Of a DNA stretch of 64,000 bases, positions 34,645 through 61,350 are shown one piece after another. Origin of the DNA: a virus. The DNA lies in IMG/VR virus record IMGVR_UViG_3300028394_000037, one strand, 5' to 3'. The position numbers and the translations under genes are program-made. The notes under the pieces were generated by a model. It saw only the letters and a list, made by a program, of their open reading frames with translations. It searched no databases and was not told the DNA's origin. The stretch's first letter is position 1. The number at the start of each line of letters is the position of its first letter.

Positions 34645-37600
34645 TTATGCAAGTGCAATTACTTTCAAGTCCTTCATTCTAGGAACATACACTTGATTAG
34701 TTGATGTCATAATAATTTTAATTCTGTATGATCTAAATGATTGTAAATTGCCTGATGTAAATACATATTCTTTATATTCAATATCTGAAGGAGAAAATCC
34801 CATAGAAGTTGTTTGAGAAATAAAGTTATCAGAACTACCATCACTATTCTCAAAATTTATAATTTGTTTTTGTGTATTTAAATTATTATATCCAGGAAAA
34901 GGTATAAATATTGGATTGAAGTTTTGTGAAGAACTTACTGCATAAAATGCACGAATATCACAATATGGATTTACGTGTGCATTTAATATTATTTTTATAG
35001 CGGAAGCTGAATTTTCTAAAATAATTTCTTTAGAAATATATTGGAATGCAGTTGGATCATTATCTATAGTGTTTGATTTACTATCTGTAGCATAATTTGT
35101 AATTACACTATTAATTCTATTTGATGTTAAAATTGTACTGATTCTTTGTGTATCTACCATTGGACTCAATTTAGTATCAATTGTATTGAGTGATAGTCTC
35201 ATATTAAGTGATTTATTTCCAGGTAAAGTTGAAAGTTTATTACTTTCATTTACTTTGGATGCAATAATTCTGGGACTATTATAATAATTTGATTTATTTA
35301 ATGCAATTGATTCAAATCCATTATCAACGTAAGATAATTCATTTCCACTTATACTAGTTCCAGAAATTGATCTTAATTCAGCACTTAAAGAAGTTCCTTG
35401 AACTGTAAGATTGTGTACTACCGGAGTAATAATTTCATATGGTATATTCTGAGTTGCTCTGATATTAAACCCACCAGTAGATTTAGTTTGATTTAAAAAT
35501 AGTTTGGGATATCCATTATCAGTACTTCTATCAGTACCGTCCGTTGTCATATCAATCTTAATATTGTACGAATCTAATGTTATTGGATTGCTGATAGAAA
35601 CATCATTTAAATAATGAGTCTTATTAATTCTTCTTAAAGAAACTCCTCCCAATTCATACTTATAAACTGGAGTTCCTACTGGATAATTTTTGGGATTTGA
35701 TCCTCTAACTATAGTTCCATTAATCACTCCTGGAGAAGTTGATGTATATGAAATAATTTCATCACCAATTAAGATATATCCTTTATTGGTTGTTCCCACT
35801 CCAACATTTTCAAAAGTTGATAGATTTGATGTACTTTCTACAGAAATATTAGAACTGGAATTTGTATTATATGCAACAGACAGTTTTGTTGGTTTTACAT
35901 CAGATTCAACATTTGAAATTGTCACATAGTTATCTTTTGAATACATTCCATGATTTTTATGATCAACTAAAATATGAAGTCCATCACTAATTGCGTTGAT
36001 ATTTGATATTTGAACATCTCCACCATTGGAATAGTTTAATATTGTAGTTATACCAGAACTATTAATATATTGAAGTGTTTTTCCGGTTCCAACAACAACA
36101 AAATCACCCTGAACATTATTCAAAATTAATTGATTAGTACTTCCAATTGAAACAATAGAGAATTTTGCATCACCACCAGTGCCACTATTTCCAATTGTTG
36201 TTATACCCAAAACATCTCCAATTTGATATCCACTACCACCTGCTACAATTGTTGCTGCAATTGCAACACCTTGACTTATAGTAATATCTGCAGTTGCATT
36301 TGCGCCATAACCTGTAATACTAGTTAAATTTACGTTGTTGAAAGTATATGATCCTGATGATGGAGTGTAACCAATACCCGCATTGATAACATTTAACGAT
36401 GATGTTGCACTTCCTGCACTTCCAACATAATTTCCAGTAGCATTAGTTCCAAGTTGTAAAACTGTATTTCCAAATGCTAATCCAGAATCTGCAATGGTTG
36501 TACCCAAACCTACTCTAATATTTCTAGATGATAAATTAATTGAATTTGGCATCAATACTGGAATTTGATTATTTCCTTCAGATAATTCTGGATTATAAAA
36601 TTCAACTGTACCTGATTTTATGAAATCTGCACGATAAAGAACAAATTTCAAATCTTCCCATTGACTTGCTTCCCAAGTGGAAGTATTTTGTGATTTGAAT
36701 AAGTATCCAAGATATGGTTGATTAGATATGAATGATTGTGACAGTAGATCATTCTCACCAATTCTTGATACATAAATGCTATATTTTGTAGAATTTGATG
36801 ATACGCAAATTGCATATTCTTTACCACCTTCCAGATATACCGGAGATTTGAAAATAAATGAAGTTGCTACAGAAGAATTTGATGAAATACTAACCTCAGA
36901 TGAATCTAATGTAACTTCAGAAAATGGTAGTATCTTTTGAGTTGGAATTCCATTTTCAATTGTTCTGAGTTGTAGTGTAACTGGAATATCCATATCATCT
37001 TTTGATTTAAAGAAGATATCACATCTTGTCAAAAAGATTCCTGTTGAATCTTCAACCAAGAACGATTGTGCAATAGGATCATACCAACTAACAACAACAT
37101 CTTTATTTGATTTATTTGCTAATATTCCCGCTCCAGAAACAATTTGCGTTCCTGTTGTTTTTGATACTAATTTATTATTAAATTCTTTTTTATTTTGTAT
37201 TCTTGTATTTCTTATTGAAATTATATCATCTTGGACTGTTTCCAAAATACCTGTAGATGAAAATCCTTCTTCTGCAGTTGTATTTGCTAGATTTGAATCA
37301 TTTATATCATTATCAATAAAACTGAGTACTTTATTTCCAATTTCAAATCTTGGATTTTCAAGAACATTTGGATTTGGAATAAAGAAACATCCAGTTAAAG
37401 TTGATGATAAATCTGATATTAATCGTACATTTGTAATTGTTGCTTGAGCACCACTTCTTTGTCCAACTAAAATCATATTAGATTCTACCCATCCACTAAA
37501 CTCACCTTGAGTTTGATTTGCTAAAGAAAATGTGTCTACATTTAATATAGTTGAGGTTGATGAATAATTTCCTTGAAGTATTTGACTTGTGTATGGATTA

Positions 37601-40600
37601 AATGGATATGTTGAAGTTGCTGAATTATAAGGACCATCTTTATGATTTGATTGTGCAACTCTAAATGTTATACTTGGTGTTGTTTGTTCAATATTTGGTC
37701 CAAGTCCAGTATTTCTTACAGTTCCAACAACAGTTTCTCCAACAGAAAATACCCCAGAGATCATAGATATCTCTAATAGTTTTGGAGTACAATATTTGCT
37801 TACATTAACTCCATCAAAGAAAGCATAAAGTCTAGTTAATGGTTTTAATTTCTTAGCAACAAATTGAACATTTCTAGATCTCATATAAGAAATGAGATCT
37901 TTATTTACAACTTTATCACCAATAGATGACTTATCAAATTGATCAGAAACAATTGTTGTTCCTATTTTTTGAGGTACAACTTCTTTAACTTGATTTCTTA
38001 CTATAGTTGATACTTGCGTATCATATACAGATCTTCCCCACTCACTACCAGATATCATAGATGAATATTTTGGAGTTTCAATAATATCCTTACCAACCCA
38101 AATAGTTTCCCAAGAATCCCAAAGAACTGGAGCGAATCCAATTTGAGAATCCATATCTATGGTTCTTGATGCAAGAGATAATATCTCTGAGTAATTTCCT
38201 TCAGTGTTACTGCTTTTTGCATTTATTCTAACAGTATCCATCCAACTATCAGATGCTGGAGTAATCTCAATAGAACCTTGCCAGAAACTGATAATAAATG
38301 GAGTTACATTTTCTGATCTTGTAGCAAAAGATTGTTTCAACCATTCAATTTCAGCATAATCAAGAGTGATAATATCTCCAGTTTTTCTTGTATTGATTCC
38401 ATCTATAACTGAAAATTCCAAATCTTCTGATGGATCAACATTAGTAACTGGTCCAACAATCAAATCAACGGAATTTGTATAATGTTTTGGACGTAATTCT
38501 TTATTTGAAATATCTATACTATTTTTATACTCAACTCCATTTTCTTGTGGAAATAATGAACTAAAATTATCCACAAAGAAACCGGATTTAAATCTATTGA
38601 ATCCATTTTCATCAGAAACAAAAAGATTTGCAGTATTTGTTTCTAATAAAGATAGTGATGTATAATACTCCAGATTTTTTATTCTATTCTCAAGTTGTTT
38701 AATATCAACCATTCTATATTTTTTATGCTCCAAAAATCTTAAAGAACTTTGGGATACATTATACAAATATGGAGGTAACATTACTGATGATATCTCCATT
38801 GCATCATCTACAGATATGGGAAGATCAGGTTTTTCTGATGGTGTTCCATATTTTATTTGAAATTTTCCATCCTTTGTTAGGTATACTCTGTCAATTCTAC
38901 CAAGATAGAATGAAAAAGTTGTGACAATAGATTCATCTGATGCAAGAATGTTAGCAGCAGAATTTCCAGAAGAATTGAAGGTTCTTCCATAAAATTCTAA
39001 TGGAGATCTTGAACCTATAGAAACACTATAGTTAGAAACTCTTGGTCTAATATCAATTAAATCAGTATTTCTGATATTATCTACACTCTGTATTTCTTTA
39101 CCATAGTTAAATGTATCATATGACTGAACTGTAGTGACATCTCCAGAATCTGATGATTGATAATATCCATTGGAAAAGTATATCTTTAATTTTTTGGATG
39201 GCTCTAAAGCATTTGATTTTCTATTAATTGTTCCGTAATTATAAAATGATCCATTTTGTCCATTATCATAACTATAATTAAATGATACATCAAAACTTGT
39301 TGAAGTTAATGTAGTAATTGTTGCCCTAACTTTAGATTCTTCAAATATTACAGTTTCACCTTCCTTAAAATTGTATTGATTTTTTGAAACAAATGAAATC
39401 TGATAATCGGTTAGTTTTTCCGCGCAGATTGCAACAGCACCACTACTTTGTCCTGTAAATTTTTCTCCGATAATTAAATCGGATGTTTTTGATGACGGAC
39501 CATTTAATGATGATAAAACTACCTTTGGTGCAGATGCTGCAGTAATATCGGATGATTCATAAATTGAATGAATTTCAATTATATCTGGAACATTTAAAGA
39601 AATTATTTCATCTTGAATTCTTGTGCCATATGGATAATTTCCATAAATTAATCCATCATTCAATGTTCCAGATCCTGTTCCAGATGAACTATACTTTGAT
39701 TTGTCAATAATTAATGTATTTACTCTATTTTTTATTTTTAATTTTGATTTTATTTTAGACTTCTTAAGAGTAGTTATTAATGTTGCATTTGTATCATTTG
39801 ATCCAAGATTGTTAATTTGTAACTGTAATGAATCAGATGTAATATTGACATTATTTGACGTTAATATTTCTGTAGTACCATCAGATCTGATTAATGAGTA
39901 TCTCTCATCGGAAAATGGTAGAAATGTCTCATTTGTCCCAGCAGTAACTGCAGATGATAACTGATTTCCGGAAATATTAACATTTTGAATCTTTCTTATA
40001 GTTACATAAGAATCTGTTAAATCTATAGATTCTATATTATCTTTTGGTAATTTTGTATATAATGTGTTGTCACTTGAAGATGATAAAGATGATGTTATTA
40101 TTTTTAAGTCTGTTACATTTAATGTACTAGATGGCAATTTACCTTCAACTATACCAGTAATTGTAGTAACTCCAGATATTGTAATAGATGTTGATCCAAC
40201 GCTTACAACTTTAGCAAAAACTGGATCTGAAGATCCTCCACTATACTTTATAATATTTTTTGCTCTTATATTTTTTCCTGGAAATTGAGGATTTGAACTA
40301 TATACCGTACTTATGCCACCACTCAAAGCTGAAATTGTTGCTATTCCAATATTGAATGAATCTGACTGAATTACATCTGCAGTAAATGTTGAAGCAGAAC
40401 CAACAATACCATAAACAGATTTAATATCCGAGATTCCATATGAAGTAACTGCTATTGCTACTCTATTATTTTCTATACCGTTAAATATAAATGATTCATT
40501 TGCAATAAATTCTCCAGACTTTTCATATACAGTTACTGCAGTCCCGGCTGAAACAGCATATCGTAGAAATGCTGTTGCACCACTAGATTTGCCCTTAATA

Positions 40601-42069
40601 AATGTAGGTATTGATAAATCAATTGGTTGATTTAATGTAATCTCTGAAATAGTTTGAATATCATATAATGAAATATCCCATTCATTTATATTTTTATTTG
40701 ATGTATTGTATTTTCCAGATTCTAATCTAAAATCATAAACTCTTGCGACACCTATTTCATTTCCTGGTGCGGTCGTTGAAGAATATCCAACACGTTCATC
40801 TCTTAAACTTAATATATAAGTATTTCCAATTCCAATTGTAGGTGTTCCATATACTCTATTTAATTTTAATGTTGATCCTGTATTGTAATTGATTGATTGA
40901 TTTTTTATTGTCTTTGTTGTTCTTGGTTTTGGTACATCCAAAAATATTGGAGATGTATTTTCAACTTCATACCCTCTTACAACAGATTTTCCTGGAGATA
41001 TTTGATATATTGCTAAATCATCAGACGATGTTGATCCTCCATATGTAAATTGTCCAGAATTAAATATTCCACGATTTCCAACACCATCATTTAATGACTC
41101 TACTACAGAAATATTATATGGATTTATGTAATAATTTCCAGACTCTGCGTATGTTTTTTTTGCTAATTCATCTTTAACAAGATTATAATTTGATGAAACT
41201 GATTGAGATTTTATAATTCCATCATTAATTGTTGATAATTCTATAAAATTGTTATCATTAAAATCTGCTAAATTCTTTTTATACAGTGAAACTGTTATTT
41301 TCAGTCTATCAGCACCTGGAGCAGCATAATTATTAAATCCTTGTGAATTATCTGTTAAATTTTCATCAATATCTGCATTGATGATTTCTTCATTTATAAA
41401 TAAACCAACTCTATAGTTAGGTTTATTTGTATATTGATCTAAAATTAATGTCTCTGTATTTACATTTACAAATTGTCCACGAATAAAATATACACCATTA
41501 GTGATAGAAAATGCAGATCCTACTGATGTTGAATTATTTGCAATTGTAGATGCAAATACACTACCTGAAGGAATTGATGTATTTCCAAGAAGTCCAGATA
41601 TAATAGTTACACTTGTTTCTAATAATTCATCGTCAGAGAACTGTTGTGTTGAATTATTTTGAGTATTTGATGAAATATAATTTACATATAATGTTACATT
41701 TCCTCTTTCTGAATCATTTGCAGATAGAACTTTTTCTACTACAGCAGTTACTCCAGAAGTCTGCCCTGTAATTTTTGTTCCTACAAGTTGACTTATATAA
41801 GCTTCTATTGGAATTCCAAGATATGTATTATTTAATTCAACTGCATAATAAATTGCATTATAACCAGTATTTCCGGGAATAACTTTTGCGCCTTCTTTAA
41901 AGAAGTGTTGCCCAAATTTTTCAATTTGATTCTGTAATATTGACTGAAGAGTTGTTAATTCTCTTGCTTGAATTGGAATACCAGGTTTAAAAAGTACTTT
42001 ATAGTAGTCATTATTTGCATCAAAATCGTCAAAATATGGTGATACATTTAAATTAGTTTGCTGAGACAT
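34645..42069 (-). CDS. Large baseplate-associated virion structural protein (DUF4815/VrlC-like), 2474 aa
   Basis: NLNVSPYFDDFD...KVLFKPG..QARELT.LQSILQNQ, APGADRLK, RIKNLEYYTSLSLLE, DPIAQSF. Confidence 0.85.
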   Translation of the reverse strand: MSQQTNLNVSPYFDDFDANNDYYKVLFKPGIPIQARELTTLQSILQNQIEKFGQHFFKEGAKVIPGNTGYNAIYYAVELNNTYLGIPIEAYISQLVGTKITGQTSGVTAVVEKVLSANDSERGNVTLYVNYISSNTQNNSTQQFSDDELLETSVTIISGLLGNTSIPSGSVFASTIANNSTSVGSAFSITNGVYFIRGQFVNVNTETLILDQYTNKPNYRVGLFINEEIINADIDENLTDNSQGFNNYAAPGADRLKITVSLYKKNLADFNDNNFIELSTINDGIIKSQSVSSNYNLVKDELAKKTYAESGNYYINPYNISVVESLNDGVGNRGIFNSGQFTYGGSTSSDDLAIYQISPGKSVVRGYEVENTSPIFLDVPKPRTTKTIKNQSINYNTGSTLKLNRVYGTPTIGIGNTYILSLRDERVGYSSTTAPGNEIGVARVYDFRLESGKYNTSNKNINEWDISLYDIQTISEITLNQPIDLSIPTFIKGKSSGATAFLRYAVSAGTAVTVYEKSGEFIANESFIFNGIENNRVAIAVTSYGISDIKSVYGIVGSASTFTADVIQSDSFNIGIATISALSGGISTVYSSNPQFPGKNIRAKNIIKYSGGSSDPVFAKVVSVGSTSITISGVTTITGIVEGKLPSSTLNVTDLKIITSSLSSSSDNTLYTKLPKDNIESIDLTDSYVTIRKIQNVNISGNQLSSAVTAGTNETFLPFSDERYSLIRSDGTTEILTSNNVNITSDSLQLQINNLGSNDTNATLITTLKKSKIKSKLKIKNRVNTLIIDKSKYSSSGTGSGTLNDGLIYGNYPYGTRIQDEIISLNVPDIIEIHSIYESSDITAASAPKVVLSSLNGPSSKTSDLIIGEKFTGQSSGAVAICAEKLTDYQISFVSKNQYNFKEGETVIFEESKVRATITTLTSTSFDVSFNYSYDNGQNGSFYNYGTINRKSNALEPSKKLKIYFSNGYYQSSDSGDVTTVQSYDTFNYGKEIQSVDNIRNTDLIDIRPRVSNYSVSIGSRSPLEFYGRTFNSSGNSAANILASDESIVTTFSFYLGRIDRVYLTKDGKFQIKYGTPSEKPDLPISVDDAMEISSVMLPPYLYNVSQSSLRFLEHKKYRMVDIKQLENRIKNLEYYTSLSLLETNTANLFVSDENGFNRFKSGFFVDNFSSLFPQENGVEYKNSIDISNKELRPKHYTNSVDLIVGPVTNVDPSEDLEFSVIDGINTRKTGDIITLDYAEIEWLKQSFATRSENVTPFIISFWQGSIEITPASDSWMDTVRINAKSSNTEGNYSEILSLASRTIDMDSQIGFAPVLWDSWETIWVGKDIIETPKYSSMISGSEWGRSVYDTQVSTIVRNQVKEVVPQKIGTTIVSDQFDKSSIGDKVVNKDLISYMRSRNVQFVAKKLKPLTRLYAFFDGVNVSKYCTPKLLEISMISGVFSVGETVVGTVRNTGLGPNIEQTTPSITFRVAQSNHKDGPYNSATSTYPFNPYTSQILQGNYSSTSTILNVDTFSLANQTQGEFSGWVESNMILVGQRSGAQATITNVRLISDLSSTLTGCFFIPNPNVLENPRFEIGNKVLSFIDNDINDSNLANTTAEEGFSSTGILETVQDDIISIRNTRIQNKKEFNNKLVSKTTGTQIVSGAGILANKSNKDVVVSWYDPIAQSFLVEDSTGIFLTRCDIFFKSKDDMDIPVTLQLRTIENGIPTQKILPFSEVTLDSSEVSISSNSSVATSFIFKSPVYLEGGKEYAICVSSNSTKYSIYVSRIGENDLLSQSFISNQPYLGYLFKSQNTSTWEASQWEDLKFVLYRADFIKSGTVEFYNPELSEGNNQIPVLMPNSINLSSRNIRVGLGTTIADSGLAFGNTVLQLGTNATGNYVGSAGSATSSLNVINAGIGYTPSSGSYTFNNVNLTSITGYGANATADITISQGVAIAATIVAGGSGYQIGDVLGITTIGNSGTGGDAKFSIVSIGSTNQLILNNVQGDFVVVGTGKTLQYINSSGITTILNYSNGGDVQISNINAISDGLHILVDHKNHGMYSKDNYVTISNVESDVKPTKLSVAYNTNSSSNISVESTSNLSTFENVGVGTTNKGYILIGDEIISYTSTSPGVINGTIVRGSNPKNYPVGTPVYKYELGGVSLRRINKTHYLNDVSISNPITLDSYNIKIDMTTDGTDRSTDNGYPKLFLNQTKSTGGFNIRATQNIPYEIITPVVHNLTVQGTSLSAELRSISGTSISGNELSYVDNGFESIALNKSNYYNSPRIIASKVNESNKLSTLPGNKSLNMRLSLNTIDTKLSPMVDTQRISTILTSNRINSVITNYATDSKSNTIDNDPTAFQYISKEIILENSASAIKIILNAHVNPYCDIRAFYAVSSSQNFNPIFIPFPGYNNLNTQKQIINFENSDGSSDNFISQTTSMGFSPSDIEYKEYVFTSGNLQSFRSYRIKIIMTSTNQVYVPRMKDLKVIALA

Positions 42070-43653: not shown

Positions 43654-46600
43654 TTATGAAACATAATTGATATAACCAAGAGGTTTTGTTCTTTTTAAAA
43701 TAGTTCCTGTAGTTATTCCTGCCGATCCACGTAAATTATACGAATTATAAGATAATTCTTTATTTCTAGATTCAAGTGAAACTTTTCCCCAACTAAATTC
43801 TCCATAAAAATTACTATATCCAATTCCAGTCAATCCATTATAATTTGAAACACTTACCGTTACTTTTGCAACATAAGTAATTCCAAAACCAACCGCAGAA
43901 GTTTGTGCAATTGATACTGAAGCAACTTGATATACATTATCTAAGAAAGTAGATCCTACACCAACAATAGATCCAGAAGAATTTAAAGAAGTTACACCAT
44001 TTCCAACATTGGAATTGTAAACAACAAAATAATAACCTGTTTGAATTCCACTAATAGTTGTTACTCCAGTTATTAAAGAATTTCTGAGGAAAGAATTTTT
44101 TGAAATAACAAAGTCAAATACAATTCCAGTTGAGGCTACTCCAACAGAAGTTGTTTTTATACCTGTTATAATACCAAAATCACCCTCATATGATTTTACT
44201 TCATTATTTTCAGTTTTCATTGTTGGTGGTTCAATTAATACTATAGGTATTGTCGTATAACCTAGTCCTGGAGTAGTTATTGTTATTGTTGTCACTATAC
44301 CAGCAGTTATTGATGCAACACCAACAGCAGTATTTTCTGTTGCAGTTGTTCCAAATCCAATTGGACCTGCAATTGTAACAGTTGGATTTGTAATATACCC
44401 CTGTCCACCATTAGAAATAACAATTGAAGAAATTGTTCCAGCAATTGAAACTATTGCAGTTGCTGCTGCAGAAACTTTAGGTTCTTGAGAAATTAATGTA
44501 ATATTTTTTTGATAATCTAAATTAGTACTATTTTCATTGATTTGATTAAAGAATGGTTTAATATTATCAACAAATATAATTGTGCTACCTATACCAACCG
44601 AATTTATTAAATATGCAACAGGATTGATCAATGGTTCATATAATATTCTACTTTTTGATATTACAGTTTCATCAATAATCATATCTTCAGTTTGCTTGCA
44701 CCAAGTAACTGGACGAAGAAGTGTTGCGTCTGTGACGTTTCCTGGACCAAAATATGGATTAGTACTTAAAACATTAGTTGAATTTATACTTGTAACTGCC
44801 CTTTCATTTTCTTGTAGAGATATAGATTGTCCAATATATGGATCATATCCAATCGTAAGTTCATCACCAACTTTTACAGTTTCCAATATGTCTCTATATA
44901 CAACATCAATTTCACCGCTTCCTTTATAGAAAATGATCTTTGATGTATCTCCAGATTTTGGAGGTTCTGTAAAAGTTATAATACTCCCACCAGGAAATTG
45001 ATATCCTTCTCCAGGAACCTGTAGAATATCATTTACAAAAATTAGCAGTGTATCCTCAACATTTATATTGGATCCTTTTGCTGAATATATTGAAAATGGA
45101 ATTCTAGAATATGATATTGTAAAGGTTTTTCTTTTTCCATCAAATAAACTGTCAAAGTTATCTAGTACTTGAAGTTTTCCAATTGACCAACCAGTAAATT
45201 TATCTGTAAATGTTTTTTGTATATTTATTTTAAATTCTTCAAAATTTGAATTGGATGTTGTTGGAATTCCTACAGTTCCACCAATACCAATTGTTAGTAT
45301 ATCATTTTCATTATAACCATATCCAGTATTTTTAATTTCATAATCAATTATACTAGATCCTTGCCCAACAACAATATCAATAGTTGCCTGTGTACCAATT
45401 CCAGATGATGAAGAACTATAAACTAATGGTATATTTGAATATGAAAGTGGAGCATCAAATATGACATATGGTGTATTTGTGAAAGTATACCCAACTCCAG
45501 GATTTGTTATTGAAACACCAGTGATATATCCATTATTAATTGATGCTGTTCCAACAATTGTTATATTTAAGATATCAGTAGAAGATGTTCCTACTCCAAC
45601 TCTAACGGTCTGTAACCCTTGTCTATAACCAGATCCACTATTACCTATACTAATAGATGAAATTGTTCCTGCTGCCGATACAGTTGCAGTACCACCAGCA
45701 GAAATTAATGGTTGATATCCAAATCCTGAAGATGAACCTACTGATACAATAATACCACCACGAGGAATAGATGCTGTATTTACATCTGATGTAATTGAAG
45801 ATGCAGTTCCTGTAAAAGTAACTGATGTAATGCCTGCTGTTTGAGATAATGTATAATTATATTGGGATTCTGGTCCCTGAAAAATATCATTAATTAATAT
45901 AATCGCATTTTCTGAAGATATTCCAGATATATTTGATCCAAATGATTTTAGATTAAATGTTTTTTCTTTACCGTTAAAACCAGATGATATATCATCAAAT
46001 ATGTAATTTTTATAATAAGTCTCATTTGATGTATTAGATTCACCAGATCTCAAAAAGGTTCTTCCTTGGAATTTTGAATGAATTGAAATTCCTTCCCAAT
46101 CTCTTTCATCTGGAGGATTTGTAGTTGTTCCATATGGAATATTTCCATATGGAGCTTCAATGAAATTAAGAGTATTATCAACAATGTTATAATTTCCAGA
46201 TACTTTAGTTACCAAAGTTCCTGTTGAATATCCCGCAACAACCGTTCCCAACCAAGGTCTACGAACTCTGATTCCATTGGTACTTCCTATACCAACTTCA
46301 TCAATTCTCATTATTTCATTACCAATTTTAAGTAAGTTTGATCCAAATAATGATGTAATGTTATCAAGATAAATGATATCGTCAGTAGTAAATACTCTAT
46401 TTGATAGTGTTGTAGTTACAGCAGAGGCTACAATTGGGGATTGTATCAAGTTATCAATAGCAATAATAACTTTTGCATTTTGATTTGTTGATGTGAATGA
46501 GTGTAATGTTTCTCCAATACCAACACTTACAATATTTAATACTTTGGGAATAGGATTTAAAGCATCACTTGCACTTGCTGCGAGTTTAATCTTATTATCA

Positions 46601-49600
46601 TTAACTTTGACTACATAGACAGATGATGGGAGTTTGCTAGTTGTACCAACACCAACAAAATATGTTGATGCAATTCCAATTGCACCATAAGTACTAGTGC
46701 TTATTCCTGGATGTGAATATGTAAGATTTTCTCCAGTAACAAAGAAATGATTTGGAATTGATATTGTATCTGAACTTGTGCTTATGATTGAAGAATCAGT
46801 ACCATCAAAATATCTTTGGAATATTGGATAATTTTTATGTTTTAATTCAAAAGATCTTTTAATATCACGATTAGTTCCATAATAATTTTGATAGTTTGTT
46901 TCTAGTGATGAATTATTAAATGATACTACATCTTTATCATCATCTTCATAACGTAAAATATTTGAAAATACTTTTATACCTGTTTCAACATTTTGAAGGG
47001 GAGTAAAAGTTAATTGTGTTACTCCACCAACTCTTGCTGTTCCAATTGTGCCAATTCCAGAAGAAGTTTCAATATTTGCAAATTCATTAAAATATGTTTC
47101 TGTATCATCATCAATGACAACGACCTCTGATAACTGATGTCTATTATTTGTAATATCTGATGCTTGAACTATAAAATATGCCCCATCATAATCATCCAAA
47201 TAATCTGAAATTACTATAGGTGTGGGTGTTGATGTTGATGCAATTGAAGTTGATCTTGATTCTAATCTAGAATGTTTCAAATCAAAGGTGCCAACACCAG
47301 AAAATCCAGTATTTGCAATAGAAACCTGTATCGTATTAATAATTGCCGTTAAACCAATTCCTGAATTTGGAATAAAATCTAATTTAAAATCAGATCCAGA
47401 AATGTATGTATTATAAGTTCCCAAACCAGAAGAAGAATTTTCAGTCAAACTATCAGTAGATAGTTGTCCATAATCAATAAATTGTACATCAGAACCATCG
47501 TGAATTATACTTATTTCATTAAATTGAAATGGTCCTGTTCCATTATTTGCCCCAATTTCAACCAAAATTTTTGCAGACTGATATGTGGTTGGAATATTGG
47601 AAATATTTGTTGTAGTTCCAGAAGATACTATAATACTTGTTGTTGCAAAACTTACAGAATCTCCAAAACTTGTACTTGCAACGGAAGTATACACATCCTT
47701 TAAATTGTATGATATTAATGTGACATCATAATCGTTTACTTCATATTTTGTTGGATAAAAATATAATACACCTTCAGAACCCACAATACCAAAATCAAAA
47801 GATCCCATATCATACGTAGTTTCAACTCTACCGTATTGGTTAATATGTCCCAATCCAACATCGTGAATTAGCGTAGAAATTAGCAATTGTCTTTGTGATG
47901 TATATCTTTTATCTCTTATATAAATGAAATTTTTCTGTGCTCTTGCATCAGTTAATAAAAATCTATGAACCTCAGAATAATTAGTAGGTCTTGGATTGCT
48001 ATTAAATTGTGAACTGATATCATCTATTGATAAAACTCTATTGCCGATAGATTCAAAATAATCAATTAAGATAGTATTTGAAAATATCATCTCATTGGAA
48101 ATGACTGATGAATTAATTTCTAATGAATTTTCTCGTACTAAATCAAAATTATAAAAACAATTCAAATCAGCATATCCAACAATATCTGTTATGACATCTA
48201 TTGTTGCACTTAATGCCTGATTATTTTTTGGATCAAATATGTTTGGTTCTGAACTTTCTAATTGATAATCACTGAATTTTTTAAATCCAGATGTATGATT
48301 TAATGTACTTACTGCGTCATTCCAAGTATCATAGTCTACTTTTGATTTTAATGAATATGAAAAATTTTGATAATAATGATTATCTTGTATTCTCTGTAAA
48401 TTATCATTTAAGAATCCAGCATTTGAATTCCACCCACCATTTATATCCGATGATGAATTTAATTCAAATACTGCATCAAAGTTGTCTAATTTACTAATAA
48501 TTCCTTGACTCTTTGATGTATACCCTTCTATTATTTCATTGGCTACAAATTTTTGATTTGAAATTATTCTTAATTGATCTATTGTAGAATTCCAAGTGTC
48601 CACATAACCAGATGCTGATAGTGTTAATACTTTTTCATTTTCAAGAAAATTATTTTTTTTCAAAATAGAATTAAAAATTGGAAAATATTTTTCTGGTATT
48701 ATTCTTCCTGCAGAATTAATGGAATCATATGTACCTGGAACTTCAGATCCTATTAAGTAATTTGATAGATTATAAGTTACTGTTCCAATATTTCCTCCAA
48801 TATTTGCGTCAACTGCAGTAATTGTAAATAGAGAATAATTATAATTTTCGGAATTAAAACCTTTACCAGTTGATTCAATTCCAACACTAACATTTTCAAT
48901 AAGAACCTTATCATTAACTTTAAATGGAAAATCATTTGCAACACTAAATCCAACAGATAATGTTACTGTCACATCTTTTGATATACTATTAAATTGAATT
49001 GAACTTATTCCGACACCATTTGAATTTTGTATTGGAATAATTTTTGGGGTAATGTTATTGAGTCCATAAGTATTTTTTAATATTTTAACATCATTATCAC
49101 CAAGAGTATATTTTAAATCAACCTCAGATGCAATTCTATTTGTTTTGCCATCAATAACAATTAGTTTTGGTGATACTGTGTATCCTCTACCAAAAGAGGA
49201 TACTTTTATTGATTCAAATGATGCTAGAGGTTCAACCTTTATAACCTGTGGCATCTGAACAGATGGTTTAACTGTAAAATCGCAAGGAAAATCAAATCCA
49301 ATATCATTAATTTTTGTGCTATTTACTTTTCCTATTGATTTGCTTGATGCTTCTAAGAGTGCTCCATATCCATCTGTAGATGTAATATTCGTGAGTGTTG
49401 GGAGAGTATAATAATTTTTACCTTTATTTGTAATTTCTACATTTGAAATTGTACCAGAACAATTTTTAGAATTCGTTTGGTATTCTAGTTTTGAACTGGA
49501 TGAAGAATATAAATCTGCTTCTAAAATTTCCCCAGAAGTGTATGTAAATGATGTGGATGATGCAACTGAAACTTGATATTCTCCATTATATTTACTTTGA

Positions 49601-52600
49601 TGTATTTGTATTTCATTATTTGAATGTATAGAATTATCTACAACTATTTCTTGTTTTGTACTTGGGAGTTGATTTTCATAGATTGGATTTAATTTATAGT
49701 ATAATTTTTCTGGTAGATATTGATTGACCGTTAATATCACTCTTGCATCATTTGTTATTCCAACAGATCCATATCTTGTAATTTCAAAAATATTCGTTTG
49801 CTCAGATGTTGTATATTTTTCTGTAAAATTTGAATCTTTATAAAAATCCAATTTGAATGCAGAGTAAATATTTCCTTGTAAATTATATGAAAGAGATGAA
49901 TCTGATAAATCAAAAGTAACCGTTGAATCTTTATAAACTTTTATTGGTGGATTGATTGCAGAAATTGTACCAAATGATGCACTACTGATACCAACAATTT
50001 CTGGATTTAGTGAAATTGAATCAAAATATGTATTTGATAATTTAATATTATTTTCATCAACAATTACAGCATAATAAATTTTATTTGATTGTAATCCAAT
50101 TGATGGTGACGAAGAAGTATGAATTATCTTTTGACCTTTTACATACCCGTGATTTGGAATTGTAATAGTATTAGTTATAGTACTTATTCCAGCAGATAAA
50201 AATGTGTTTGGATTAACTACTAATCTTCTATTGTAGTCATTATAATTGATAGTAAATGTTGTTGATATTGATGGATTTACATCCACAAATACTGTATCTC
50301 CATTTAGTAAACCGTGTGTTTGTGCTGTGGATACCGTAATAAGATTCCTAGAAATCTTTCCAGTAATTGGTAGATAATTTGTTTTGAAACTGTGATTGAC
50401 TCCTGTTCCCAGTCCAGTAAAATAAAGTGTACTTAAAGAGCTAGTAGTACTTGCTATTCCAACAAATGTTCCTGTTGAACCAAGTCCAACTTTTACCGTT
50501 GATATTCCAATTAAACTATTGGATATTTTTGCGACATATACTGTAGAATTATTTTCTAAAGTTGTTGTTCCTATTCCAGTTTGTGAGACTATCAGTGGAC
50601 TACCACCATTTACGGAATATGTAAGAATATCTCCAGTTTCTAAATTGTGGTATGGAATATAAATTGATTTAGTTGGAATGAAAATTTGAGTTATTCCAAC
50701 TCCAGGATTTGAGAATGATATTGTTGTCCCTATTCCAACACCAGATTTAGTTCCAATTCCAATAGATTCAATTGGATTTAAATATATTTCTTTATTTGTT
50801 TTATAATCAAATAATGTAGAAAATCCAACATTTATATTCAATCTTTTTGAATTTTCAAATAATAAAGATGATGCTGTATGAGATACTCCTACTGAACCAT
50901 TAACTCCTCTCAATACTTTAATTCTTGACGATCTTTCATCTATACTTAAAACTTGTACTTTTTCTGTTCCTATACCTAAAATATCATTCTCACGAATATT
51001 TTGATAAGACAAATTTCCAGAAACTGAGAAGTATGTTATTATACCTGTGCTACTCAAATTTCCAGTAGATGATATTAGAGTAAGAGTATTTGTTGTAACT
51101 CCTACAGTATAAAATGCTTCAAGTAATGATGATGTTGTATTTAATCCAGATATTGAAATGATATCACTATCTTTGAAATTATGAGGATTCTTTGTGAATA
51201 AAACAAGATTTCTTTTTTCTTCTGTTGGATATATTTCTACATTTGAAATACTACTAGTTGCTACACTTATTGTATTAATAGGTTTTCCATATATTTTAGA
51301 TACTTTAGCAGAAGCTCCATATCCTCCTTGTAAATTTTCATTGTTGAATGTAATACTATCATCTACTTTATAATCATTTCCTCCGGTTACAATTCCAACA
51401 TTCTCTACCGCACCAGGTGATGCTGATTTTATATCAACAGTTTGATTTAATTTATTTGGAATATTTAAATATGGATATGAACTATTTTCATCAATTAAAT
51501 TGTATGGATAAGTATTTCTCATCCATTGGGTTTTATTTAAATCAATATATTTTTGATTTGATAACTTATCAAAATTAAAATCAATTGGTTTTGATCTAAA
51601 ATTATTCCCAATAATATATGGGAATGTTGGTTGCTTATATCCTATAAATGGTCCAGAAGAGTCTACTGAAATATTATTAATAGTTACAAAATATGCATAA
51701 GTCCCATTTGGAAATTCTGGAGTAATACAATATCTTCCATTATTCTCATCCAATACTGTTTCATCATCTCTATTATAATAAGTATAATCTTCTACAAAAA
51801 ATCCAACAGGGAAATTATCATTTACTGGAGGTCTATTTGTTTTCAAATCAATTTTATATCCAGATTTCATCTGAGATACTATTCCACCTTGATTTTTTAA
51901 GTATCCATAGGGACCATATATTGGATTTCCATCATAAGCCCATCCTATAATTGGAGAATGATCGGTAGATAAAATTTCTGAACCATTTACTTTTTTTAGA
52001 TCTGCTGTTTTATATAAAATATTTCCACCCTGATCTGATGCATATAAAATTTCTCTAAGTTTTCTTGGTGCATATAAATGAGTATATTCCAATCCATACT
52101 CACTATTCAAACCTTCTGAAATTATTCCATCATCATCTGTGATAGATTTAAAATATTTTTGAAATAAATTTACTTTCCAAGTTTGTATTTTAGATTTAAA
52201 TACTGATTTTGTGCCAGAAGAAATTACTTCTATTTTTGTAGTTTCTTGAGTATAATTAACTCCACTTTCAATAATTTTTACTGATACTATTTGTCCATTT
52301 TGTATAATAGGAGTTAAGACTGCACCATTTCCAACTCCACTAATGTATAATTTTGGAGAAGAATTGTAATTATTTCCGGTTTTGTTTATTATAACATCTA
52401 CAATTTTTCCATCTATTGACACAACTGGTGTTAATATTGCATCAGATCCACTATCCAAAGTAAAATTTGGTTCACGATAATAATTTAAAATTTCCGATGA
52501 ACCATATCCAACTCCACCATTCGTTAAATGGAATGATGTAATGGTTCCTCTAAATATTGGTTGAATTTTTGATTGGAATGTTTCTCCAGACACTGAAGAA

Positions 52601-55600
52601 ATTCCAACATTTCCAATAATTTCAACTAAAATATCTGGATAATTAAATGTATGTGTTCCTGATCCAACTGATGAAAAATCAATATATTGATTTGTTGTGT
52701 AATAAAAATCTTGATTAGTTAGACCAACTCCAATTTGAGATAGTTTAAATTGGTTATCATCAACTTTTGATATGTAATAATTGGTATTATTTTGTAATCC
52801 ACCAATTACAGCATCATCGTTAGTATATGTTACAATTTCTCCAGATTTATAATCGTGATTTTTGATATACACTAATCCAAGTGAAGTATTAATACCACTT
52901 GATCCAGTTGTTCTTTTTTTATTCTCGTACCCACTACCAGAATTTATTACACTAATTGATCCTATAATAGATTTCTTATTATATGATTGTATGGTATGAT
53001 TTCCTATTCCATACGATGACAATGTAATAGTATTTACTCCAACTACTGCATCATCAAATGTATTATGCAGTTTAATTGTATATGGTGTTTGTACATTTAC
53101 ATAGTATGTTGAATCTGTTGATAAACCACCTACAGGAGTTTGTCCATCTGTCTTATAAATTACTTGTTCTGCGTTTCTAAATTTATGATATGTTGTAAAA
53201 CCTATAGTTGATATTGTGGTTCCTATGCCAACTAACTGAGAAGTTAAATTTGAATTAAATACTGACTGATGAGTAACTAATTTCATATTTGGTTCGGCTT
53301 TTGCACCAATTCCATTTCCACCAGTTATTTTGATAATTGGTGTTTGTAGATAATCAAATCCAGGATCAATTATTCTTATTTCTTTTAAATTTCCATTAAT
53401 AGCACAATATCCAGTAGCACCAGTTCCAACAGAATCGTTAATATTGAGAATTGGTGGATTGATTATATCATAATCAAATCCAGATGATACTACATTAATT
53501 TCTTCTAATGCACCATATGAAATATTATCTGTGGATTTATAATTAAGAATCTCAACACCGTTAATTAAAATGCCAATTTTTCCTGGATTAGTTTCATATT
53601 GATATCCATCATTTACTGGTGGTGAGATTTCTCTCAATAAATTTTGTGATGATACTATTTTAGAATTAAATTTTTGAAGTTCTAGTTTATTTGAACTTAC
53701 TGTTTTTGATGTGGTTATTCTTTCAAAATTTGAGTTAAAAATATCAGATCTACTTTTTGCAAATCTAATATTATTGAAATCTTCTCTTTTTACAAAATAT
53801 ACTCCTTCATTAAATAATGAACCGGAAGAAGTTATGGATCCTCTTGGATTATAATATATTGCATCTCCAGTATAAAAACCGTGATCAGTATTTGAAGTAA
53901 TTTTAAAAATATCAGTATATGCTAAACCAACTCCAAATGTTCCAGAAAAAATTATTGATTTATCTGATGGAGTTAATGTGTATGGTGATCCTGTTTGTAT
54001 ATCAATATAATATGGAATAGATGAAGAAGCAATTAATGTTCTATCTTTTATTTTATATACGTTTTGTATATTGGAAATAGCACTAGAAATATTTGATTTT
54101 AAAATATTTCTTTTTATTGTATACGTATCTGTAGTGGATAAAGTACCTTGTCCATTTATTTTAATAATTTTATTGGAAAATACATCAATTACAGTAGCTG
54201 ATTTTTTTACACCAGAACTATTTGTAATTGTAACAATATCACCAAGTCTAAAAATGTGAGAATCCTTAGTTATAATTTTATAGTCAGAATTATTTACTTT
54301 TGAAACTGATTCTACAACATAAGATGGTGATATATTAAATAACCAATTATTAGATACAGCATTTTTTTCATTAACTCCAAGAGTCTTAATTTTTCCAGTA
54401 TTTCCTGGTGCCAGATAATATGTATCATCTTCAATATTTAAATTGCTCAAAACCGAACGAATTTGTATCGTTATGGTTTCGTTTGAATTTTTTGAAGATT
54501 TCCCATAAGCATATGTATTGATACCAATATTTGATTCATCTAATATTGTGTTTGTGATATTTTTACAATCAAAAAATTGATTGATAGATTTTGAATAATA
54601 TGATACTATTCCAATAGTATTGTCAGAATATAATACTTTCAGTTCTCCACTTTGAGGAAATCCTATTGTAGAATCTACATCAAGAACTGTTGATCCTGTA
54701 GATACATTTCCTATCAATTTTGTTTTGGGATGAATTGAGAAATTTCCATATATTGCACCATCAACAATAAGATCTCTATTATACCCAGAATCCAAATTTA
54801 GTTTATAATATGAACCAAGTTCAGATGATATTTTTTCTACACTTGCAATTGGTGCATATGATTTTGTTATATTACCATATTCATCTTGAAATAATGTAGA
54901 ATTTTCAAGATCGTATGGATTGCCAGAAACACTTTCAACAACTAAAGATTTGTATACTTTATATTGAGCATCTGAAGGTCTAAAAAGTTGTTCTTTTGGT
55001 TTAATTATACTTACATTTTCCCCATATAATGCTTTAAATAAAATTTTAAATGACTCGTTTGTTCCTTTAACTGAATAAAAATCCTTTATATGTCTAATAA
55101 AATTTGATTGGTCTAATTTTACATCAAGATCTCTATTTTCAAATCCTGGTGTTAATTGATATTTTAATTTAGATAGAAATTCTTTTAAAAATAAAGAACT
55201 TAGATTTAAAATTTTAGAACCAGCACTATGCTCTGCAGATTCTGATTGTGAAAATACTAGTTCATCTGGTTTGTTTTGTTTTTTATGAGAAGTAATTCCA
55301 CTAAATCCTCTAATACATCCAGTAAATGTATTAGAAGTTTTTCCTATGTATGTAATAATTTCATCATCAATTTGAAGTAATCCATAAGATTCTGGAAATC
55401 CTTCAGTTCCAGTTGATGATTTCACCAAATCAATTGTAATCGTATCATCAATAAATGATATACTTGAAGATAATATTACATAGTCAATCTGATTTGTATT
55501 ATTGTCTAATTTTGAATATTGATCAATATTCTGTATTAAATCAGCAGGTGCTCCCTGAAACTCTTGAGAAATATAATACTGAGATAAAAATTCAGAAACT

Positions 55601-55677
55601 AACGGAAACTCATCTCTAACATATTCAGGAAGTTGATTTTTAACAATATTGTTAAATTGAATTCTTTTTTCTACCAT
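43654..55677 (-). CDS. gp7: Baseplate wedge initiator gp7-like giant protein, 4007 aa
   Basis: NQLPEYVRDEFP, IKDFY..KGT..SFKILFKALYG, QDNHYYQNFSYSLKS...LNHTSG; between gp6 and gp8. Confidence 0.85.
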   Translation of the reverse strand: MVEKRIQFNNIVKNQLPEYVRDEFPLVSEFLSQYYISQEFQGAPADLIQNIDQYSKLDNNTNQIDYVILSSSISFIDDTITIDLVKSSTGTEGFPESYGLLQIDDEIITYIGKTSNTFTGCIRGFSGITSHKKQNKPDELVFSQSESAEHSAGSKILNLSSLFLKEFLSKLKYQLTPGFENRDLDVKLDQSNFIRHIKDFYSVKGTNESFKILFKALYGENVSIIKPKEQLFRPSDAQYKVYKSLVVESVSGNPYDLENSTLFQDEYGNITKSYAPIASVEKISSELGSYYKLNLDSGYNRDLIVDGAIYGNFSIHPKTKLIGNVSTGSTVLDVDSTIGFPQSGELKVLYSDNTIGIVSYYSKSINQFFDCKNITNTILDESNIGINTYAYGKSSKNSNETITIQIRSVLSNLNIEDDTYYLAPGNTGKIKTLGVNEKNAVSNNWLFNISPSYVVESVSKVNNSDYKIITKDSHIFRLGDIVTITNSSGVKKSATVIDVFSNKIIKINGQGTLSTTDTYTIKRNILKSNISSAISNIQNVYKIKDRTLIASSSIPYYIDIQTGSPYTLTPSDKSIIFSGTFGVGLAYTDIFKITSNTDHGFYTGDAIYYNPRGSITSSGSLFNEGVYFVKREDFNNIRFAKSRSDIFNSNFERITTSKTVSSNKLELQKFNSKIVSSQNLLREISPPVNDGYQYETNPGKIGILINGVEILNYKSTDNISYGALEEINVVSSGFDYDIINPPILNINDSVGTGATGYCAINGNLKEIRIIDPGFDYLQTPIIKITGGNGIGAKAEPNMKLVTHQSVFNSNLTSQLVGIGTTISTIGFTTYHKFRNAEQVIYKTDGQTPVGGLSTDSTYYVNVQTPYTIKLHNTFDDAVVGVNTITLSSYGIGNHTIQSYNKKSIIGSISVINSGSGYENKKRTTGSSGINTSLGLVYIKNHDYKSGEIVTYTNDDAVIGGLQNNTNYYISKVDDNQFKLSQIGVGLTNQDFYYTTNQYIDFSSVGSGTHTFNYPDILVEIIGNVGISSVSGETFQSKIQPIFRGTITSFHLTNGGVGYGSSEILNYYREPNFTLDSGSDAILTPVVSIDGKIVDVIINKTGNNYNSSPKLYISGVGNGAVLTPIIQNGQIVSVKIIESGVNYTQETTKIEVISSGTKSVFKSKIQTWKVNLFQKYFKSITDDDGIISEGLNSEYGLEYTHLYAPRKLREILYASDQGGNILYKTADLKKVNGSEILSTDHSPIIGWAYDGNPIYGPYGYLKNQGGIVSQMKSGYKIDLKTNRPPVNDNFPVGFFVEDYTYYNRDDETVLDENNGRYCITPEFPNGTYAYFVTINNISVDSSGPFIGYKQPTFPYIIGNNFRSKPIDFNFDKLSNQKYIDLNKTQWMRNTYPYNLIDENSSYPYLNIPNKLNQTVDIKSASPGAVENVGIVTGGNDYKVDDSITFNNENLQGGYGASAKVSKIYGKPINTISVATSSISNVEIYPTEEKRNLVLFTKNPHNFKDSDIISISGLNTTSSLLEAFYTVGVTTNTLTLISSTGNLSSTGIITYFSVSGNLSYQNIRENDILGIGTEKVQVLSIDERSSRIKVLRGVNGSVGVSHTASSLLFENSKRLNINVGFSTLFDYKTNKEIYLNPIESIGIGTKSGVGIGTTISFSNPGVGITQIFIPTKSIYIPYHNLETGDILTYSVNGGSPLIVSQTGIGTTTLENNSTVYVAKISNSLIGISTVKVGLGSTGTFVGIASTTSSLSTLYFTGLGTGVNHSFKTNYLPITGKISRNLITVSTAQTHGLLNGDTVFVDVNPSISTTFTINYNDYNRRLVVNPNTFLSAGISTITNTITIPNHGYVKGQKIIHTSSSPSIGLQSNKIYYAVIVDENNIKLSNTYFDSISLNPEIVGISSASFGTISAINPPIKVYKDSTVTFDLSDSSLSYNLQGNIYSAFKLDFYKDSNFTEKYTTSEQTNIFEITRYGSVGITNDARVILTVNQYLPEKLYYKLNPIYENQLPSTKQEIVVDNSIHSNNEIQIHQSKYNGEYQVSVASSTSFTYTSGEILEADLYSSSSSKLEYQTNSKNCSGTISNVEITNKGKNYYTLPTLTNITSTDGYGALLEASSKSIGKVNSTKINDIGFDFPCDFTVKPSVQMPQVIKVEPLASFESIKVSSFGRGYTVSPKLIVIDGKTNRIASEVDLKYTLGDNDVKILKNTYGLNNITPKIIPIQNSNGVGISSIQFNSISKDVTVTLSVGFSVANDFPFKVNDKVLIENVSVGIESTGKGFNSENYNYSLFTITAVDANIGGNIGTVTYNLSNYLIGSEVPGTYDSINSAGRIIPEKYFPIFNSILKKNNFLENEKVLTLSASGYVDTWNSTIDQLRIISNQKFVANEIIEGYTSKSQGIISKLDNFDAVFELNSSSDINGGWNSNAGFLNDNLQRIQDNHYYQNFSYSLKSKVDYDTWNDAVSTLNHTSGFKKFSDYQLESSEPNIFDPKNNQALSATIDVITDIVGYADLNCFYNFDLVRENSLEINSSVISNEMIFSNTILIDYFESIGNRVLSIDDISSQFNSNPRPTNYSEVHRFLLTDARAQKNFIYIRDKRYTSQRQLLISTLIHDVGLGHINQYGRVETTYDMGSFDFGIVGSEGVLYFYPTKYEVNDYDVTLISYNLKDVYTSVASTSFGDSVSFATTSIIVSSGTTTNISNIPTTYQSAKILVEIGANNGTGPFQFNEISIIHDGSDVQFIDYGQLSTDSLTENSSSGLGTYNTYISGSDFKLDFIPNSGIGLTAIINTIQVSIANTGFSGVGTFDLKHSRLESRSTSIASTSTPTPIVISDYLDDYDGAYFIVQASDITNNRHQLSEVVVIDDDTETYFNEFANIETSSGIGTIGTARVGGVTQLTFTPLQNVETGIKVFSNILRYEDDDKDVVSFNNSSLETNYQNYYGTNRDIKRSFELKHKNYPIFQRYFDGTDSSIISTSSDTISIPNHFFVTGENLTYSHPGISTSTYGAIGIASTYFVGVGTTSKLPSSVYVVKVNDNKIKLAASASDALNPIPKVLNIVSVGIGETLHSFTSTNQNAKVIIAIDNLIQSPIVASAVTTTLSNRVFTTDDIIYLDNITSLFGSNLLKIGNEIMRIDEVGIGSTNGIRVRRPWLGTVVAGYSTGTLVTKVSGNYNIVDNTLNFIEAPYGNIPYGTTTNPPDERDWEGISIHSKFQGRTFLRSGESNTSNETYYKNYIFDDISSGFNGKEKTFNLKSFGSNISGISSENAIILINDIFQGPESQYNYTLSQTAGITSVTFTGTASSITSDVNTASIPRGGIIVSVGSSSGFGYQPLISAGGTATVSAAGTISSISIGNSGSGYRQGLQTVRVGVGTSSTDILNITIVGTASINNGYITGVSITNPGVGYTFTNTPYVIFDAPLSYSNIPLVYSSSSSGIGTQATIDIVVGQGSSIIDYEIKNTGYGYNENDILTIGIGGTVGIPTTSNSNFEEFKINIQKTFTDKFTGWSIGKLQVLDNFDSLFDGKRKTFTISYSRIPFSIYSAKGSNINVEDTLLIFVNDILQVPGEGYQFPGGSIITFTEPPKSGDTSKIIFYKGSGEIDVVYRDILETVKVGDELTIGYDPYIGQSISLQENERAVTSINSTNVLSTNPYFGPGNVTDATLLRPVTWCKQTEDMIIDETVISKSRILYEPLINPVAYLINSVGIGSTIIFVDNIKPFFNQINENSTNLDYQKNITLISQEPKVSAAATAIVSIAGTISSIVISNGGQGYITNPTVTIAGPIGFGTTATENTAVGVASITAGIVTTITITTPGLGYTTIPIVLIEPPTMKTENNEVKSYEGDFGIITGIKTTSVGVASTGIVFDFVISKNSFLRNSLITGVTTISGIQTGYYFVVYNSNVGNGVTSLNSSGSIVGVGSTFLDNVYQVASVSIAQTSAVGFGITYVAKVTVSVSNYNGLTGIGYSNFYGEFSWGKVSLESRNKELSYNSYNLRGSAGITTGTILKRTKPLGYINYVS

Positions 55678-60384: not shown

Positions 60385-60536
60385 AATAAAATTTGGCGAA
60401 AATTTTTTTTATTTCAAGTGATATTGAGAGCTCGTTTTGTCACCTCTGTAGGTTAGGAAGGACCCTTTTTTTATATATGGACGGCATCGCCCACCAATAA
60501 CAATTAAACAACATAACATAATACTGTCCATACACG

Positions 60537-60572
60537 AACAGTGATTGAACGAATAACTAATCAATCACTGTT
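60537..60572. repeat. 12-bp perfect inverted repeat (probable terminator/hairpin)
   Basis: AACAGTGATTGA-12 nt-TCAATCACTGTT just downstream of the 60601..60768 gene. Confidence 0.75.
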
Positions 60573-60600
60573 GTTTAATTGTAAGAGAACGAACAAGTGA

Positions 60601-60768
60601 TTACCAACGAACTGAGAGATCTTCTACGTAACTATCTACGTGTTCATTTGATTCAAGGTTAAAGAGTTTATTCCAATTAATATCACGAGGATTAAAGTCT
60701 TCAAGAACATCAAGTTCCAGAGTAACACGATACTTATGCTTTTGAGTTGACAGATACGAATTGACCAT
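60601..60768 (-). CDS. 55-aa hypothetical early protein (MVNSYLSTQKHKYRVTLELDVLEDFNPRDINWNKLF...)
   Basis: GGGAGG SD, own consensus sigma70 promoter. Confidence 0.8.
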   Translation of the reverse strand: MVNSYLSTQKHKYRVTLELDVLEDFNPRDINWNKLFNLESNEHVDSYVEDLSVRW

Positions 60769-60804
60769 AAGAAACCTCCCAGTAAAACAGAATGAACTTC
60801 TTTG

Positions 60805-60833
60805 ATTATAGACCATAACAAACGAACTGTCAA
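60805..60833 (-). promoter_or_regulatory. Consensus sigma70 promoter
   Basis: TTGACA-17 nt-TATAAT, perfect. Confidence 0.85.
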
Positions 60834-60931
60834 TATACGAATATAACAAATCCACCCTTATCTGATACACTTCAAAAAGGGTTAGTAAGTACGAGCTATG
60901 TATTATAACAATCAATCAACGTATCAAGTGT

Positions 60932-61081
60932 TTCTGAGTATGCTGCTCAACGATTTTGTTATGCCGGAGACCGTGTTCAAACTCCCTCTTGTATGATATA
61001 GGTTATCTGCTTCATTCTGTCAGATTGTTACCTCTTGGTCCCGTAGGAGAGTTCAAGTGCTGCTCAAACGAATGAGTTAGA
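60932..61081 (-). ncRNA. Candidate structured non-coding RNA with pseudoknot
   Basis: Late promoter TATAAATA 61087-61094; no ORF; stems GAACUCUC/GGGAGUUU, AGGU..AUCUG/CAGAU.ACCU and crossing GGGACC/GGUCUC; flanked by two UUGAGCAGCA. Confidence 0.5.
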
Positions 61082-61104
61082 TGTTTTATTTATACAAGTA
61101 AACG

Positions 61105-61350
61105 AAATCCACAGGTTTATATAAGTTTTCCACAGGACGAATCTTATAAACTATTGCAAACACTCAGATAATTATAAAATCTGTGGAAAACTTATATGTG
61201 TGAACTCTGACAGTCCCTCAGGGGGTATTGACATTATGCGGCGAGTGTGTTATGATACGCAGTCTAAGATAACAACATAAACAGACATAAAAAGAATAAT
61301 AACACTATCGAAACTCAGAGATACATAAGTTTTCCACAGACCTGTTGAAT
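61105..61350. promoter_or_regulatory. Cluster of TTTTCCACA (cyanobacterial DnaA-box-like) sites, putative origin
   Basis: TTTTCCACA at 61126-61134 (+), 61182-61190 (-), 61330-61338 (+), each within ATAAGTTTTCCACAG; degenerate copies at 61105-61113 and ~61343-61351. Confidence 0.6.
61228..61256 (+). promoter_or_regulatory. Strong sigma70 promoter pointing against the gene flow
   Basis: TTGACA-17 nt-TATGAT; no downstream plus-strand ORF. Confidence 0.75.

Follow-up and report, generated by a model that had tools for sequence, protein, structure and literature searches.

A late-promoter structured RNA with exchangeable heads and tails forms an apparently undescribed family in T4-like cyanophages

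The window, by which we mean the whole 64,000-nt stretch of DNA analysed here, belongs to a T4-like (Kyanoviridae) phage of freshwater cyanobacteria, and the RNA runs containing it originate from lake water. The RNA locus is a large intergenic region with small early ORFs on one side and structural genes on the other (Table 1). The 55-aa gene and a 256-aa glycosyltransferase-like gene have matches solely in Synechococcus and Prochlorococcus myoviruses, and baseplate genes lie downstream of both. After the baseplate genes, the minus strand carries very long ORFs at 43654-55677 (4007 aa) and 34645-42069 (2474 aa), as is usual for cyanomyophage structural proteins. When the sequence was re-checked, all of the coordinates given in a preliminary description of this DNA proved correct, including those of the late box and of the perfect σ70 promoter, SD and ORF of the 55-aa gene. 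Across the RNA, no minus-strand ORF reaches 35 aa, in line with its description as ORF-free. The σ70 promoter is kept ahead of every homologue of the 55-aa gene. An extended -10-like sequence (TG-n-TATAAT; 60903-60911, minus strand), just 3' of the RNA, could provide this gene with an additional promoter. Within 61118-61340, three 15-17-nt repeats each contain a cyanobacterial DnaA-type 9-mer, the strict copies at 61126, 61190 and 61330 being the sole ones in the 64 kb, and a plus-strand σ70 promoter (61228-61256) sits among these repeats.

Table 1. Features of the RNA locus and of the adjoining 55-aa gene (positions in the window)
Feature	Position	Strand	Basis or remark
T4-type late promoter box	61087-61094	minus	Sequence; fixed spacing in the family
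Whole non-coding RNA, ~150 nt	60931-61082	minus	Homologue alignments; both ends predicted
5' rod hairpin	61005-61082	minus	Pairing and covariation in 31 sequences
Rod basal stems	61082-79/61008-05, 61075-70/61017-12	minus	Sequence variable, pairing kept
Conserved head, type R	61021-61062	minus	Three 3-bp helices, bulge, apical stem
Head helices	61062-60/61023-21, 61056-54/61027-25, 61051-49/61034-32	minus	93-99% paired
Head apical stem	61048-46/61041-39	minus	UACG tetraloop
H-type pseudoknot, tail A, 36 nt	60950-60985	minus	Covariation, 24 sequences
Pseudoknot S1	60985-82/60969-66	minus	100% paired, 24 sequences
Pseudoknot S2	60974-70/60954-50	minus	100% paired, 24 sequences
Terminal hairpin (60949-46/60938-35), then GAAA	60931-60949	minus	4/4 pairs with both-side changes, 92.7% paired
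Proposed antisense target in 55-aa leader	60787-60796	minus	Exact complement, unconserved; judged incidental
SD of 55-aa gene	60775-60780	minus	
σ70 promoter of 55-aa gene, perfect	60805-60833	minus	Separate transcription unit
55-aa gene	60601-60768	minus	PHROG 12516; usual, not obligatory, neighbour of the RNA

The preliminary description had proposed a structured RNA downstream of the late box and a comparison of homologous loci. We gathered such loci via the 55-aa gene and via DNA patterns, which yielded 86 distinct copies of the RNA in viral and metagenome contigs and in the cultured phage S-SRM01, where the copy is unannotated and falls in a gap near 86,500-86,600. A late box was present just upstream in 81 of the 83 testable copies, against a background of 2.5% (unfiltered count). 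The spacing from the late box to the head motif is 27-37 nt, or 52-54 nt in a longer type; in 60 of 81 members, pairing begins 3-6 nt past the box. GC-rich metagenome pattern matches lacking a late box were taken as chance. Relative to the 55-aa gene, the RNA is found upstream, downstream or on the opposite strand, and clustering of the neighbours, which are small ORFs at variable positions, revealed no accompanying nuclease, reverse transcriptase or other enzyme gene. A blastn search against cultured phages returned a single 24-nt match, in S-SRM01, and exact-pattern scans for the head and the pseudoknot found none in bacterial and archaeal genomes. Covariance models, which are narrow and could miss divergent forms, gave no match in the marine cyanophages S-SM2, Bellamy, S-SCSM1, P-TIM68 and S-B05, or in DSL-LC03 and two large IMG/VR genomes. 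Taken alone, the window RNA folds no better than its shuffles (z -0.5). The RNA is real and belongs to a phage RNA family.

We also searched for relationships to known RNAs. The window gave no relevant match in Rfam, either at gathering thresholds or at E-values up to 10, and the families of Rfam 15 without a match in the window include riboswitches, 6S, SRP, RNase P, ribozymes, abiF, wcaG, manA and PhotoRC. Fifteen homologous loci, C and D types included, likewise gave no Rfam match, and ARAGORN detected no tRNA or tmRNA in the window or in nine loci. No conserved adjacent nuclease or reverse transcriptase gene was found that would link the RNA to omega-RNA/HEARO or retrons. Likenesses to 16S helix 14, the sarcin-ricin loop and SRP domain IV, as well as to SAM-V, preQ1-I, pistol, T-box and RNase P loops, failed across the homologues and had no Rfam score. 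The proposal of a late-promoter, structured, pseudoknot-containing non-coding RNA absent from Rfam is supported. Literature searches yielded no paper describing the RNA, and the family is apparently undescribed; it could coincide with one of the unnamed candidate RNAs from viral metagenomes (PMC10690425), for which the comparative evidence is of the same sort. As for expression, lake metatranscriptome contigs cover parts of the RNA at a depth of ~4-5 (X1, 60493-61022; X4, 60879-61058), giving neither strand, ends, level nor timing, and the uncovered parts carry no meaning.

The 5' part of the RNA forms a long rod. Over 31 sequences, 88.8% of the cells were paired and both-side changes occurred in 11 of the 19 pairs, compared with 26-54% pairing in slid controls (the structure was read from the same sequences as were scored, and the counts are without relatedness correction). 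ViennaRNA folds the first 82 nt alone into this rod, with a pair probability of 0.78. The three helices of the type R head are split by a 3x1 loop, presumably C-loop-like, and a 2x4 loop, and are followed by a 4-nt bulge; the UACG apical loop is common among relatives yet dispensable. In the third helix (61051-49/61034-32), all three pairs show both-side changes, with a further C-G to G-C swap in locus L245. A second head, type D, is unrelated to R; the long rod that bears it follows the same late box. RNAs with this head often adjoin the 55-aa gene, carry tail A, tail B or neither, and have no Rfam match. The D-head rod is 150-190 nt long, with a conserved multi-loop head (L007:536-790, L149, L153, L157, L234-L239 and L026).

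The 3' part consists of one of three tails. In tail A, the H-type pseudoknot has a 7-nt L1, an A-rich 11-nt L3 and about a dozen invariant unpaired bases, and together with the terminal hairpin it is 97.8% paired over 24 sequences. Two pairs of S1 change jointly in L214 (also in L234) and two pairs of S2 in L116, a covariation that comprises few independent events, is uncorrected for relatedness and was scored on the sequences from which the structure was read; in L245, the wobble position of S2 is occupied by U-U. In the window, tail A is not followed by a predicted intrinsic terminator. Tail B is a bulged hairpin, 99.3% paired, with covariation in 3 of its 9 pairs, and type C combines the R head on a longer rod with a terminator-like hairpin at the end. 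Across the rod, the pseudoknot and the tail-B hairpin, pairing reaches 89-99%, and compensatory changes exceed those in column shuffles and slid controls. Heads of both types and all three tails (pseudoknot, bulged hairpin, terminator) have been swapped between relatives, the combinations found at the same locus being R-B (31), R-A (24), R-other (17), D-A (6), D-other (5) and D-B (2). Conserved sequence is concentrated in the short internal loops and in the loops of the pseudoknot. The long stems and the single-stranded linker are variable, and the RNA thus offers no conserved seed.

The covarying structure differs from the fold of the preliminary description, which had an outer stem, an inner stem capped by an 11-nt loop, and a crossing helix. 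The helices of that fold can form in this sequence, and ViennaRNA indeed prefers it, at -28.5 versus -22.8 kcal/mol for the nested covarying helices without S2; covariation supports the other fold. Among 20 tail-A homologues, the earlier inner stems were paired in just 53% of the cells, and the outer and crossing helices were 87% and 86% paired, with 0 and 1 both-side changes, respectively. The latter values are explained by the conservation of both sides for other pairings, with G-U permitted. Neither the outer nor the crossing helix has an equivalent in RNAs with tail B or C, the crossing helix is missing its 5' strand in several tail-A members, and L245 disrupts one pair in each of the two. 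The supposed loop, at 61020-61010, is the 3' strand of a rod basal stem. The 10-nt direct repeat (61058-61067 and 60941-60950) said to bracket the unit is present, but its bracketing role is incidental: the second copy consists of an arm and the loop of the variable terminal hairpin, and already differs in the near-identical phages L001 and L002. The earlier fold is thus not what evolution kept; it may be an alternative conformer, since ViennaRNA prefers it for the full copy and the rod for the first 82 nt.

Because of the late box, the covariation, the independence from neighbouring genes and the exchange of modules, we favour a stand-alone RNA that acts by its shape. Our working proposal, to which we would give a little less than even weight, is a protein-binding trans-acting RNA, most likely a decoy; both the protein partner and the decoy role are what we infer. 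The RNA would be made late by the gp55-type polymerase. The basal stem would enclose its 5' end, starting with the very first nucleotides, and at the 3' end the pseudoknot and hairpin could block 3' exonucleases or add a second binding surface. With both ends protected, it would be a stable late RNA. The head would be the protein-binding site, its conserved bases in the small internal loops forming the surface; most plausibly, the RNA would serve as a decoy for, or an inhibitor of, an RNA-binding host protein of defence or regulation. Precedents are the late small RNAs of phages PAK_P3 and T4 (PMC4933390) and the RNA by which a phage mimics an antitoxin (PMC3475682); if the cyanophage RNA functions at all, it would do so in the manner of one or the other. 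Against a stand-alone decoy, thermodynamic folding of the window copy favours the earlier nested fold. A bolder version, which we regard as rather unlikely, is that the RNA serves as a scaffold with exchangeable heads and 3' locks, swapped among cyanophages and neutralising different host proteins late in infection; it would then be an RNA counterpart of variable anti-defence proteins.

As an alternative, the RNA might be a structured 5' leader that stabilises a long late transcript or acts as its conformational switch, with read-through of the 55-aa gene towards the glycosyltransferase and baseplate genes; the earlier fold could be the alternative state. Read-through is conceivable given the lack of a predicted terminator after tail A. 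Moreover, in most R-A and R-B loci the RNA and the downstream genes share one orientation, an RNA-library contig extends over 61022-60493, which is not proof of a single transcript, and the earlier outer and crossing helices retain 86-87% pairing potential in tail-A loci. However, the type C copies (the S-SRM01 group) are in the reverse orientation and have terminator-like hairpins at their ends, the downstream genes carry their own promoters, and the alternative helices are almost without covariation, with a pair broken in each by L245. We thus consider a leader unlikely.

It is less probable again that the pseudoknot is a ligand-binding aptamer, for instance one that soaks up a metabolite or a signalling nucleotide of immunity. 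A compact H-type pseudoknot with invariant unpaired bases is typical of the preQ1-I and SAM-II/V aptamers, and tail A, with about a dozen such bases, has this character; however, no Rfam riboswitch matched at E up to 10, the tail is missing in about half of the family, and there is no expression platform. An RNA that primes replication, or forms an R-loop, at an origin beside the DnaA-type boxes appears improbable. T4 origins do use promoter-driven R-loops, and the three strict 9-mers are unique in the 64 kb, but strict boxes lie upstream in just 11 of the 69 listed loci, a late promoter fires after replication has started, and a self-folding rod and pseudoknot disfavour R-loops.

We also considered a mimic of a type III antitoxin. 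ToxI monomers are H-type pseudoknots of 34-36 nt (PMC5086642), and phage RNA mimicry of an antitoxin, pseudo-ToxI, has precedent (PMC3475682). The cyanophage RNA likewise is a phage intergenic RNA, conceivably a mimic, with an H-type pseudoknot of about 36 nt, within the 34-45 nt of such antitoxins, and with A-rich flanks. Repeats are however needed for activity in that system (PMC5086642, PMC3475682), whereas the window contains one model match and no tandem array. Unlike in type III systems, there is no toxin gene, and the pseudoknot is appended to a long rod and is replaced or missing in about half of the family; no antitoxin family of Rfam matched. A ToxI-like role is thus very improbable.

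Finally, the preliminary description had proposed an antisense guide or toxin-antitoxin-like RNA that shuts off the early 55-aa gene when its loop binds the beginning of the gene's mRNA. The exact 10-nt inverted match (61011-61020 with 60787-60796) was confirmed, with a duplex energy of -13.7 kcal/mol, and the loop is unpaired in the MFE fold of this genome. Taken by itself the match is modestly unusual: among shuffles, 1.2% gave a 10-nt match to the leader and 6.5% to the downstream 326 nt, the match itself having been picked post hoc. Among 52 loci that contain both the RNA and the 55-aa gene, it was found only in the window and in a near-identical relative, and in the other 50 the longest antisense run of the equivalent segment was 3-8 nt; such a lack of complementarity in homologous loci is what the preliminary description had itself named as refuting its model. 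The mean run for an RNA with its own leader (4.6 nt) did not exceed that for swapped pairs (4.8 nt), nor did it for the whole RNA (6.3 versus 6.4 nt). Neither the conserved complementarity nor the single-stranded seed of trans-acting antisense sRNAs and type I antitoxins was found, the proposed seed being variable in sequence and paired in cis in the covarying rod. With gene order variable as well, an antisense role is scarcely credible, and the RNA probably acts by shape, not by silencing the neighbouring gene.

To our knowledge, lytic phages have yielded few functional non-coding RNAs. The described structured RNAs of T4-like cyanophages, wcaG, manA, glnA and PhotoRC-II, precede metabolic genes as cis leaders and have Rfam entries (PMC2864571, PMC10665884); the late RNA, without an Rfam match, differs in having a late box of its own and in lacking a fixed gene downstream. 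It resembles PAK_P3 sRNA1 and sRNA2 and the T4 band C and D RNAs, small RNAs of lytic myoviruses that are abundant late and have no assigned function (PMC4933390), in being an intergenic RNA of ~100-150 nt from a lytic phage, with late expression here predicted from the promoter. It shows no evident sequence or structure link to them, and is distinguished by the covarying rod and pseudoknot and by the exchangeable modules. The shape-acting decoy that we propose would, if correct, point to a host target in freshwater cyanobacteria. The family is well bounded and directly testable, with a testable structure, a conserved late promoter, natural module swaps and a cultured-phage member, S-SRM01.

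Three further observations concern the surroundings of the RNA. Many contigs of loci L001-L080 stop less than 2 kb upstream of the 55-aa gene, which suggests a repeat-rich or hypervariable region that breaks assemblies. Directly after the 55-aa gene, a branched hairpin at 60500-60582 (minus strand; -36 kcal/mol over 131 nt), covered in part by RNA-library contigs, is possibly a 3' UTR structure or a second RNA. A non-coding element at 60420-60475 (minus strand) consists of an A-run, then CCTAACCTACA, then a conserved tail; a literature search on it gave no relevant paper. This element is a candidate origin or packaging-related site, and it is conserved far more widely than the late RNA, occurring in 89 distinct contexts, including the marine phages S-SM2, Bellamy and S-SCSM1.
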